From NCBI GenBank assembly GCA_043778315.1, contig JAYWGJ010000076.1, forward strand, positions 1 to 44,653: 44,653 nucleotides of DNA, read 5' to 3'. The position numbers are program-made. Positions 9,001 through 12,000 of the stretch are shown here, one piece after another; positions within the stretch are counted from its first letter, which is position 1; each line of letters starts with the position of its first letter. The DNA comes from Saprospiraceae bacterium (GTDB lineage Bacteria > Bacteroidota > Bacteroidia > Chitinophagales > Saprospiraceae).

Positions 9001-12000
9001 CAGGCGGCTTACTTAAAGATAATTTAACGATAGATGCAGGGTTCGTGCCTATTTCTGCCATTGGTGACCGCGTATGGTTTGATGAAAATAAAGACGGTGT
9101 ACAAAATGCTAACGAAGTGACACCTATCGCTAACGTGATTGTTAAACTTTACGACTCGGTGACAAATGCGCTTATCTCTACTGATACAACCGACGCTAAC
9201 GGAAACTATTTGTTTACTAAGATACCTGCAGGAAACTATTATATTGTATTTGAAAAGCCAATAAGTTATACAGGTTCGCCGCAGATACCAAATACTACCG
9301 ACGGCTCTGACGCGGACGCACTCACAGGAAGAACACAAAACTTTACGTTAGGTTTAAACCAAGTTAGACTCGATATAGACGCAGGCTTTTTTCCAACGCC
9401 TTTACCCGTAACTATGTTGTATTTTGAGACTAAACTCAATAATTGCGAAGTGGAATTACGATGGGCAACTGCCAGCGAGCTTAATAATAAACGATTTGTA
9501 ATCATGCGCAGCACAGACGGCAAGAATTACTCAATAATAGGTGAGGTAAACGGCAACGGTACAACGGCGGTCACGCATTATTATCGTTTTAGCGATAAAG
9601 CACCCAAAACCAACAACTATTATACCTTAGTTCAGTACGATTTTGATGGAACAAGCACTCCGTTTGCAGCAGCAAAATCTATCAATACCTTTGGTTGCTA
9701 CGACGAAACCGCTAACGGCATCAGTATCATGTATCCAAACCCGAGCAGCGAAACGTTTGTAAACATGAAATTTTATACCACCTACGGTGACGAAACGATA
9801 CGCATAGAGTTTACAGATGTGTTAGGACGTACAGCTTATATTACTACAATGCCGATAACTACGGGCGCAAATATTATTAAAGTACCTTTGGCAGATTTAC
9901 CTACGGGCAGCTATTCGGTGCGTATATTTGGCGAGTCGTGGAATAGCGCAGCGCAGAAATTTGTTAGAACCAAGTTGTAGTGGTTAGTGAAGAATTTTAA
10001 GTGAACAACTAACAGTAAATAGTGAATAGTTTTAAGTAAATAACTAACCGTATTTTTTAAATGAATAATTAACAGTGAACAGCGAACAGTTAAACAAACT
10101 ATTACAAATGTTAGTAAATAATTTAGTTTAAAAATATTTAACCTTGCAGTAACTGTTTACTATTTACTATTAGCTGTTCACTAAAATTTTGTGACTGTTT
10201 ACTAATCACTGTAAAAAACTGTTCACTGTTCACTATAAACTGTTCACTGAAAAAAAGATAGATAGATTAGCTTGACAATAAAAAGCCGCCGCGTTGCAAA
10301 ACGTGTGCGGCTTTTTTTGTGTCCCAGTACGTCAGAACACTGTTCCGACGTGCGTATCGCCAAAACGCTGTTTTGGCACACTTGTCCCGACGTGCGCGCC
10401 ACCAAAACAGCGTTTTGGCACACTCTAATAAACCCTTATTTTATTACAATAATATATTTATTTGCAATAAAAAACCGTTATATTGCAATTATAAAAAACT
10501 TTATTGCTATTGTAAACTAACAGATTTATAAAGAAAATAAGCAGTCTTACAAAGAAAAGTATTTTATTTCCAATGTAATTGAATTTATTTCCCAACAAAC
10601 CTACAATCTTTCCAAAGAATTTTTTTGAGTTTCCAAAGTAATATTTTAGTTTATAATGAAAATATTTTAGTTTACAATACTAATTTTTTAGTTTACAATA
10701 GTAATAATAGTTATTTTATAAAAAAAATAGTAAAATTATTTGGCAATATAAAATATTAGTAATACATTTGCAAAGTATTTATAGGTAAATAAATAGCTGC
10801 CTATTGTAATACAATAGCTGATAATAAAAAATCAATAGCTGACAAGTGTAGATTAATGACTGCCTAATGTAAACTAATAGTTGTTAAATATAATGTAACG
10901 TTTGCCTAATGTAAACTAATAGTTGCCTATTACAAACCAATGAAAAATAAGTGCAGGTTAATACTTTATAAAAGTAAACTTTTACCAATAAAATAGCCAA
11001 TACAGTATTATCTGTATTGGCTATTTTATTGTGGAGAATAGAGAGATACTACCCGAGTAAAAAATTATAAAAAACTAAATTATGTAGTAATTAGCAATTA
11101 TTTATCGTTAATTATATTGATGCAACAATTAGGTTTCTATGAAAATACTTATAAGTTAATCAACTTTAAAAACTTTTTTAGTTTCAATTTTTTCTTTGTC
11201 TTGTATAGTAATATAATACACACCTGATGAAAACTGTGTAAGCTCCAAAACGTATTCACTTCCTGAAACAATATATGTTGCCAACTGTTTACCCATAGCG
11301 TCGTGTATGCTAAGTATTGCGTTTTCAACGGTATTGACAAAGAAAACATTTACAGCGTCGCGAGTAGGATTAGGTTGCAAAGACCCTATTATAGCTTTTT
11401 TGTCGTCTGTTGTTGCACTATTTTCTTTTGTTTTAGGATTTGTTGCGGTAGGCGCAACACGACTTGCTGCTCCTATACAAGTGCAAACTTGTTCTCGTTT
11501 AGTTCTGTTACCCGCCGCGTCATAGCTTAGTTTTATAACACAAACTGTTTGTTGGTCAGGAGAGCAAGCGGTAGGTAGCTGTGCGGATACTGCGCTCAAT
11601 TGGATAAAACTGATAATAAAAGCGGAGGCGATTTTAATTTTTTGCATAACTGTATTTATTTATAAGGTAAGTAGAAAAAAATCTTAGAAAAAACGGTGAA
11701 AACCTAATCTGAACGCAAGTCCAGTTCGGGTAAGTACGGCGGGAACATCGCCCGTATAGTTAAAGTAGGATATGCGAACCCTACCTGTGCCGCTTTCCGA
11801 CGACCAGTGATAGTGTCCTGAGAAGTCTAAGGTGGCATTAGGAGAAATATGATAGGCTATACCTGCGCCTACATAGCCGTTCGTTCCTAATAACGGATAT
11901 GTTTTTTTGAGCGTATCTGGTTTGTTGAGACCGAATGCTTGATTAGTATATATATGGTTTTGGTCAGTACCGCCTAAGCCATACGAAAACTCGGGATATA

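Follow-up and report, generated by a model that had tools for sequence, protein, structure and literature searches.

A geneless copy of a 21-bp-phased control region in a Saprospiraceae chromosome, possibly an orphaned protein-binding array rather than a small RNA gene

Phased direct repeats that embed a promoter are known from plasmids. In iteron plasmids such as P1 (incC-repA-incA) and F (incB/incC), repeats of ~19–22 bp are phased with one another; the promoter of the neighbouring gene lies within one array, and another array, which has no gene, titrates the binder or pairs with it. In the parC/ParR system of plasmid R1, two sets of phased iterons lie on either side of the promoter of the binder's own operon and occlude it, and cooperative binding on one face results in autoregulation. 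At the RNA level, the genes of the sponge RNAs CsrB and RsmZ run from a promoter to a terminator; these non-coding RNAs are composed of many short repeats that imitate the sites in mRNA leaders and present GGA in hairpin loops. The sites of LytTR regulators of the AgrA, ComE and HdrR/BrsR type are direct repeats spaced 21 bp centre-to-centre, with a 9-bp element and a 12-bp spacer, and are located next to the promoter (PMC6193735). The present analysis concerns two arrays of 21-bp units, designated A and B, in a contig of a Saprospiraceae bacterium (Bacteroidota; assembly GCA_043778315.1, contig JAYWGJ010000076.1, positions 1–44,653), the whole of which is referred to as the window (44.6 kb). 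Array B precedes a gene for a protein of 233 amino acids (aa), whereas array A has no gene. An initial annotation had regarded A as a candidate small RNA (sRNA) gene and as a possible decoy or sponge for whatever factor binds the leader of the 233-aa gene. The observation that A is a gene-less duplicate of the control region of that gene was confirmed. As to its role, A is considered here, tentatively and with less than even confidence, to be an orphaned paralogue of an array of binding sites that acts at the DNA level, which appears more likely than a dedicated sRNA gene.

Array A was found to be larger than first described. The repeats noted 3' of its promoter were recovered as seven to eight units of 21 nt, of the (G)TTGCCTAATGTAAACTAATA type, at 10791–10958, but the register begins ~280 bp 5' of the promoter and runs on uninterrupted through both promoter boxes (−33 and −7) as far as the leader, so that ~13 units lie 5' of the promoter in the same register as the downstream ones. 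The units of the arrays follow one order, ATTTCCAAWG, then TTTTAGTTTACAAT and, after the promoter, (G)TTGCCTAATGTAAAC, and all three types share the skeleton tAaTagtTTtCaAaagtAAat. The lag-21 identities of both arrays (Table 1) compare with a value of 0.33 in shuffled sequences, and lags 20 and 22 were at background in A and in B. The two arrays are the sole 21-bp-periodic places in the window, and ATTTCCAAWGNAA units are restricted to A and B (eight matches against 1.0 expected). A contig of the source biofilm metagenome spans positions 10219–17960 with zero mismatches at a depth of 36, and A is therefore not an assembly artefact. The possibility of a CRISPR array was rejected, as such an array requires unique spacers between repeats and the units of A are contiguous.

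Array B occupies the divergent control region between an Rhs toxin cluster and the 233-aa gene. Its alignment with A (10456–10938 against 18090–18593) gave a mean identity of ~80% over 481 aligned bp, which bore out the proposed homology between the body of A and the 5' leader of the open reading frame (ORF) at 18642–19343. The conserved core, GCAATATAAAATATTAG(T/C)AATACATTTGCAAAGTATTTATA, is identical at 39 of 40 positions, as had been reported, and holds the promoter in each copy, with a spacing of N20 in A and N19 in B. Identity per unit ranges from 12 to 20 of 21 and peaks at this core (20/21 and 18/21, i.e., 38/42), the best-conserved part of the pair, which speaks for a retained binding array. 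Despite ~100 substitutions (~20%) in DNA rich in A/T runs, the sole indel between A and B is one whole 21-bp unit. Homology stops at 10938/10939, and for the next 217 nt, up to the operon, the window contains no paralogue. Only the array was duplicated, with neither flanking homology nor a gene remnant: no trace of a 233-aa paralogue was detected beside A by tblastn or blastn, and no plus-strand ORF of at least 40 aa was present between 10760 and 11303, in agreement with the initial annotation. The promoter pattern itself has eight matches in the window against 2.6 expected, and the same motif is found 41 nt 5' of a ParE-like gene and 55 nt 5' of an FtsH-like gene, which suggests that it is predictive in this genome and that a ~250-nt plus-strand RNA from A is a reasonable prediction. 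The idea that every unit serves as a promoter was rejected, the spacing being wrong and the −7 box occurring only at the core.

These features could also be those of a functionless relic, left by a rearrangement or recombination that placed the Rhs island beside an array and kept in register by mutation in whole units. Consistent with such an origin are the duplication of the array without flanks or gene, the position of A and B as direct repeats at the two ends of the Rhs island (with A pointing into its 3' end), a fast turnover of units between strains and the fact that geneless arrays were not seen beside other members of the gene family. A relic is nevertheless doubtful, since the ~20% of substitutions were accompanied by zero small indels in DNA rich in A/T runs, the promoter core is conserved above the average of the array, and a sister strain uses units of the A type in the leader close to its gene. 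In that strain (protein 98% identical; two short ENA contigs, L002 and L003), the leader next to the gene has A-type units (…GTAGAT/TAATGACTGCC…) followed by a B-type 3' end. This leader represents either the original arrangement or a recombination product of A and B, and in both cases its A-type units argue that those of A are of a functional type and that exchange or turnover of the arrays proceeds by whole units. Positions 1–45 of L003, at the start of a public contig, are Illumina adapter sequence, and positions 1–40 of L002 and 46–85 of L003 are fold-backs, each the reverse complement of its own nt 82–117, i.e., assembly artefacts at the array. Outside the window, two contigs of the source metagenome X1, one 2040 nt long at a depth of 42.5 and the other 994 nt long at a depth of 37.4, occur at the genome's own depth and carry 21-bp-phased ATTTCYAATGYAA / TATTTTATTTCC units, which suggests that the unit family has more than two loci in the genome, as the sites of a trans-acting factor would.

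The 21-bp arrangement was found to extend to relatives of the 233-aa gene. Each of the seven independent homologous loci for which 400 bp or more of upstream sequence were available (window B, L008, L009/L010, L011/L012, L013-15, L016 and L020) has an array just 5' of the gene, with best lags of 21 and 42 and z values of 3.9–17.9, and partial arrays of the same period are present at the contig ends of L001 and L002/3. Among these, L013-15 belongs to a Nitrosomonadales metagenome-assembled genome (MAG) and L016 to a Chitinophagales MAG. The number of units per array varies from 11 to 25 across the family (23–25 in L009/L010), the proteins at the homologous loci are 25–35% identical to that of the window, the GC content of the arrays ranges from 21 to 58% (58% in L008), and the unit sequences are unrelated. 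No motif was shared across the arrays, TTGC being phase-locked in 3 of 11. Since the period is strictly conserved but the sequence is not, a structural ruler two DNA turns long is implied, together with a binder that co-evolves with it. Most of the arrays outside the window are self-complementary, about equally so on the two strands (z = −3.5 to −6.9), which is what dyad-symmetric DNA sites would give. The strict TAnnTTTG promoter box was not found at the other family loci. Most family members lie on contigs of 1–2 kb, and many contigs break 70–260 bp 5' of the gene, the kind of break that an upstream tandem array would produce.

Arrays of this kind are rare elsewhere: when ~168 kb were scanned, one extra 21-bp array was detected, at 15145–15460 of L011, with 15–17 units of AAAGTATGCACGATTTNGCAA (gene sense). 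It precedes a gene for a ~226-aa protein (14366–15049, minus strand) with no detectable sequence homology to the family; judged by eye, its N-terminus looks helical and its C-terminus beta-rich. Genes of the HTH_17, GIY-YIG and Bro-N types adjoin this extra array. Two other origins of the period were examined and rejected. Coding heptads (21 nt being seven codons) are at odds with stops in all frames of A and B, and the open frames through the L008 and L011b arrays either do not share the frame of the gene or follow from the repetition itself. For intrinsic curvature, the ratio of end-to-end distance to contour length was 0.79–0.97 in A and B against a background of 0.90 ± 0.07 (wedge model with approximate parameters). 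Nothing relevant to 21-bp arrays of this kind was found in the literature.

The 233-aa protein belongs to a large family. A word-indexed search returned three close relatives, whereas a profile search of 1.84 billion representatives returned 1034 clusters at 50% identity (395 with E ≤ 1e-10), nearly all of 220–240 aa. None of 51 family members matched Pfam or PHROGs; seven representatives gave nothing credible in NCBIfam (one chance-level hit, E=0.017, far below the cut-off) or in PADLOC, and the family profile had no credible sequence match in the PDB. The AlphaFold model (AF2, based on a 51-sequence alignment) has a predicted local distance difference test (pLDDT) score of 92 and comprises a helical N-domain (residues 9–128) and a beta-sandwich (147–229); in fold comparison, the latter matched fibronectin type III (FN3) and the former had no match. 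No signal peptide was visible by eye. The family loci have no conserved gene neighbours. A phage or plasmid origin of the family was rejected, as no homologues were found in plasmid records or, for the two subfamilies searched, in viral contigs. One family member, P0176, has a gene-poor gap of 1.45 kb upstream and an Rhs/DUF6443 toxin cluster ~9 kb upstream, a neighbourhood that echoes the window and may be a coincidence.

Taken at the DNA level, these data would fit the following arrangement. The control region of the 233-aa gene is a conserved type of cis-element of 11–25 head-to-tail units of exactly 21 bp, a length that corresponds to two turns of B-DNA, in which, in this genome, a promoter of the housekeeping type is embedded in register. 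A sequence-specific protein is predicted to bind one site per unit, so that all copies would lie on the same face of the helix, and its cooperative binding across the embedded promoter would set promoter activity. The candidate binders are a host regulator with a 21-bp spacing of sites, e.g., a response regulator of the LytTR type, or the ~230-aa protein encoded next to the array, the latter being suggested by the fact that array and gene stay linked across phyla while the units co-diverge. Array A would have lost its gene, or never had one, in a rearrangement associated with the Rhs island (7.6 kb) that lies between A and B, recombination between array copies being one possible route. As A keeps both register and promoter, it would most likely still bind the same factor and serve as a second site for titration or pairing. 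Its promoter probably also gives rise to a ~250-nt unstructured non-coding RNA, presumably a by-product, that would stop at a terminator shared with the convergent operon. A DNA-level function is argued for by the register, which spans ~13 upstream units predicted to be untranscribed, the promoter and the leader.

Several results weigh against this interpretation. The 233-aa protein has no recognisable DNA-binding fold, winged-helix Rep included, its FN3-like domain alone being matched. The isoelectric points of family members lie between 6 and 9, and basic residues are absent from those columns of the 51-sequence alignment that are invariant or at least 90% conserved; among the 11 closer relatives, however, R106 and K115 do reach at least 90% conservation. 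With regard to a LytTR-type binder, the strict consensus WMMGTTNRK ([TA][AC][CA]GTTN[AG][TG]) was not matched once on the two strands of A and B, in which no more than a phased WAGTT core occurs, and there is no LytTR gene in the window. Dyad symmetry and self-complementarity are slight in A and B themselves. At L008, L011, L013 and L016 the arrays reach within 20–100 nt of the start codon and are thus probably transcribed, which makes an RNA-level role possible there. The high conservation of the promoter core of A would also be expected of a functional RNA gene, and tandem repeats naturally mutate by gain or loss of entire units, so that the preserved register is suggestive of selection but not proof of it. 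Finally, no close relatives were found in two scans of genome contigs (with the TamB C-terminus and the family alignment) or in two DNA-pattern scans of metagenomes.

The claim that A has the layout of an sRNA gene held in part. The promoter motif, the repeat body and a perfect hairpin with a 16-bp stem are all present, but the hairpin need not be a dedicated terminator. It is built as 16+6+16 and was extended to ~20 bp by RNAfold; its form, A4-stem-loop-stem-T4, is the same on both strands and provides a U-run either way. It lies 129 nt past the stop (11156) of the last gene of the convergent minus-strand operon (ORF 11156–11647) and is the sole terminator-like structure after that stop. A consensus terminator scan had passed over it, since its T-run pairs with its A-run in the longest stem. 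Being bidirectional and the only terminator-like structure of the convergent operon, the hairpin needs no sRNA gene to explain it, and the sRNA-like layout may be considered one of juxtaposition. A transcript from the A promoter would also end at this shared hairpin.

In a true sRNA gene, the ~250-nt repeat RNA of A would mimic the leader of the 233-aa mRNA and titrate an RNA-binding factor, as a sponge or decoy. The intact promoter motif within the best-conserved A/B segment, the homology of the body to the leader, the strong hairpin that would define a 3' end (preceded by a small hairpin at 10951–10985) and the arrays at several homologous loci that nearly reach the start codon, and are probably part of the mRNA, are all in line with this proposal. 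The putative 254-nt RNA folds with a z value of −4.5, but its body without the terminator gave z = 0.08, i.e., chance level, so that all the apparent structure in the RNA is that of the terminator; the leader of B gave z = +1.1. A structured non-coding RNA was rejected on this basis, and a known RNA family was likewise rejected, as Rfam returned no match at the gathering score and only terminator-driven noise at E ≤ 1. There is no GGA motif in 10779–10985, and the body of A contains no stable hairpins and no GGA-type loops. An unstructured leader as a common RNA property was rejected too, most of the other arrays being strongly self-complementary on both strands. The continuation of the register for ~13 units 5' of the promoter is left unexplained by an RNA function, the terminator is accounted for by the convergent operon, and no geneless array was seen beside the other family loci. 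The sponge reading of the initial annotation is therefore possible but not the best supported, and a dedicated sRNA gene is regarded as unlikely.

Two further roles for the promoter of A were weighed. Pointing at the operon end at 11156, it might control the convergent Rhs and type IX secretion system (T9SS) operon by transcriptional interference or antisense read-through; this is highly unlikely, as the perfect 16–20-bp hairpin and its T-run lie in between and should stop most transcripts, and nothing else was found in its support. The 18-codon mini-ORF proposed earlier is present, with its ATG at 10940 and its end at 10996, in the part unique to A and 3' of an intact promoter, and its expression as a small protein was considered. 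It has no paralogue in the window and no comparator that would show conservation, its composition is typical of AT-rich non-coding DNA, and its end is buried in the terminator stem, which together make such a protein the least credible of the explanations.

Table 1. Positions of the arrays, promoters, genes and terminators discussed in the text (window coordinates).
Feature	Coordinates	Strand	Description
Array A, geneless copy	10455..10958	+	24 × 21-bp units, single unbroken register; lag-21 identity 0.55, z = 11
Upstream units of A, TATTGCAAT, ATTTCCAAWG + TTTTAGTTTACAAT types	10455..10735	+	Identified by register; predicted untranscribed
Promoter of A, Bacteroidota-type TTTG-N20-TACATTTG	10739..10770	+	Identified by motif; predicted start ~10778
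Seven downstream units of A	10791..10938	+	Homologous to the 5' leader of the 233-aa gene; B homology ends at 10938/10939
18-codon mini-ORF MKNKCRLILYKSKLLPIK, unique to A	10940..10996	+	ATG at 10940; 3' end overlaps the hairpin
Perfect palindromic hairpin	10990..11027	both strands	A-run, 12-bp GC-containing core, T-run; bidirectional intrinsic terminator
SpvB/FG-GAP/Rhs toxin cluster	11156..18011	-	~7 kb, with small ORFs, an outer-membrane protein (OMP) beta-barrel gene and a T9SS C-terminal domain (CTD) gene; bracketed by A and B
Array B, gene-linked copy	18110..18613	+	24 × 21-bp units; lag-21 identity 0.59, z = 13
Promoter of B, TTTG-N19-TACATTTG	18395..18425	+	Identified by motif
233-aa gene	18642..19343	+	Helical N-domain and FN3-like C-domain; monocistronic; large uncharacterised family
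Terminator of the 233-aa gene	19410..19441	+	Identified by terminator scan

The window is part of a Bacteroidota chromosome, as indicated by T9SS C-terminal domains, TamB, a ParE/GyrB-type topoisomerase subunit, a sigma-70 factor and metabolic genes; no rep or par genes are found among the neighbours, which are chromosomal housekeeping genes instead. Within the Rhs cluster, a perfect heptanucleotide repeat, (AAGGAGC)x4.1, is located at 17932–17960, at the 5' end of the SpvB-like ORF and directly after an out-of-frame ATG; its minus-strand reading is ATGCTCCTTGCTCCTTGCTCCTTGCTCCTTAG, and source-metagenome contigs break exactly at this repeat. As the gain or loss of one 7-nt unit shifts the frame, the repeat may be a slipped-strand on/off switch for the toxin cluster. 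The SpvB-like ORF (17241–18011) and the FG-GAP/Rhs ORF (13437–17030), both on the minus strand, are in the same frame with a single in-frame stop between them (17030–17241; …ETVSNE*RIKEIAYTS…), and the Pfam match to SpvB is cut off at the end of the former. From this single stop and the truncated match, the toxin gene would be either a nonsense pseudogene or read through.

Other repeats were recorded around the arrays and elsewhere in the window. A 42-nt palindromic unit resembling repetitive extragenic palindromic (REP) elements, TGTTCCGACGTGCG…CCAAAACAGCGTTTTGGCACACT, occurs at 10337–10424 (two units), 19360–19401 and 33611–33652, just 3' of plus-strand genes, directly before A and directly after the 233-aa gene. 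An interspersed family, ACTGTTCACT/TAGTTGTTCACT, is located after gene ends at 1–150 (as a 37-nt tandem unit), 3309–3361, 9985–10262 and 27914–27960, with both orientations at 9985–10260; its copy number in the source metagenomes is very high, many contigs there ending in it and its k-mer depth reaching ~1000. A 68-nt direct repeat of 84% identity (27276–27343 and 27755–27822, plus strand; AAAAAAATAYTATTTRT…) has one copy inside ORF 27228–27722 and the other ~30 nt past the end of that ORF, and may mark tandem paralogous genes for small membrane proteins.

The orphan copy A alone is a modest curiosity, and the broader result is the conserved module formed by a 21-bp array and its gene. This combination of array and ~230-aa gene appears to be an undescribed regulatory architecture, and the upstream arrays would explain why genes of the family sit on contigs of 1–2 kb in most metagenome assemblies. 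Array and helical/FN3 protein might even constitute a self-contained, horizontally spread module of a new kind on the chromosomes of several phyla, in which the protein or a dedicated partner polymerises on the array, as ParR does on parC or Rep on iterons. Geneless copies such as A would then be second cis sites, either titrating the binder or pairing with the array beside the gene, and at this locus the pairing would loop out the Rhs island; this wider proposal is speculative and judged improbable. If A does titrate the binder of B or pair with B, the locus would represent chromosomal control by decoy sites or handcuffing, tied to the bracketed Rhs toxin island.

By the tests run, arrays A and B are not members of the LytTR, iteron/centromere or CsrB families, although each of these shares features with them. 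With the sponge RNAs of the CsrB type, A has only its layout in common, as its body lacks both GGA and stable hairpins, and a cognate RNA-binding protein is not known from this lineage. The resemblance to LytTR sites lies in the period, which is exactly 21 bp in A, in B and at all the homologous loci, and in the occurrence of LytTR response-regulator genes, which adjoin the L001 homologue and are found 7 kb away in L011/L012, these being only two of the other family loci. In contrast, the known LytTR sites are a single pair located ~10 bp 5' of the −35 box, whereas the arrays described here have 11–25 units that span promoter and leader. Like R1 parC, both arrays embed a promoter among phased repeats; they differ from it in the unit (21 bp against 11 bp), in the lack of a partition ATPase or actin and of a ribbon-helix-helix protein, and in the spread of the 21-bp array module over the chromosomes of several phyla. 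With respect to the iteron plasmids, A and B are chromosomal and have no replication genes, the 233-aa protein shows no winged-helix Rep fold, A lies 7.6 kb 5' of the gene instead of just 3' of it, and binding is a prediction. The likeness to iterons lies in phased direct repeats that embed the promoter of the adjacent gene (B) together with a second, geneless array (A), and this pairing would be the DNA-level analogue of the decoy that was first proposed for A as an RNA.

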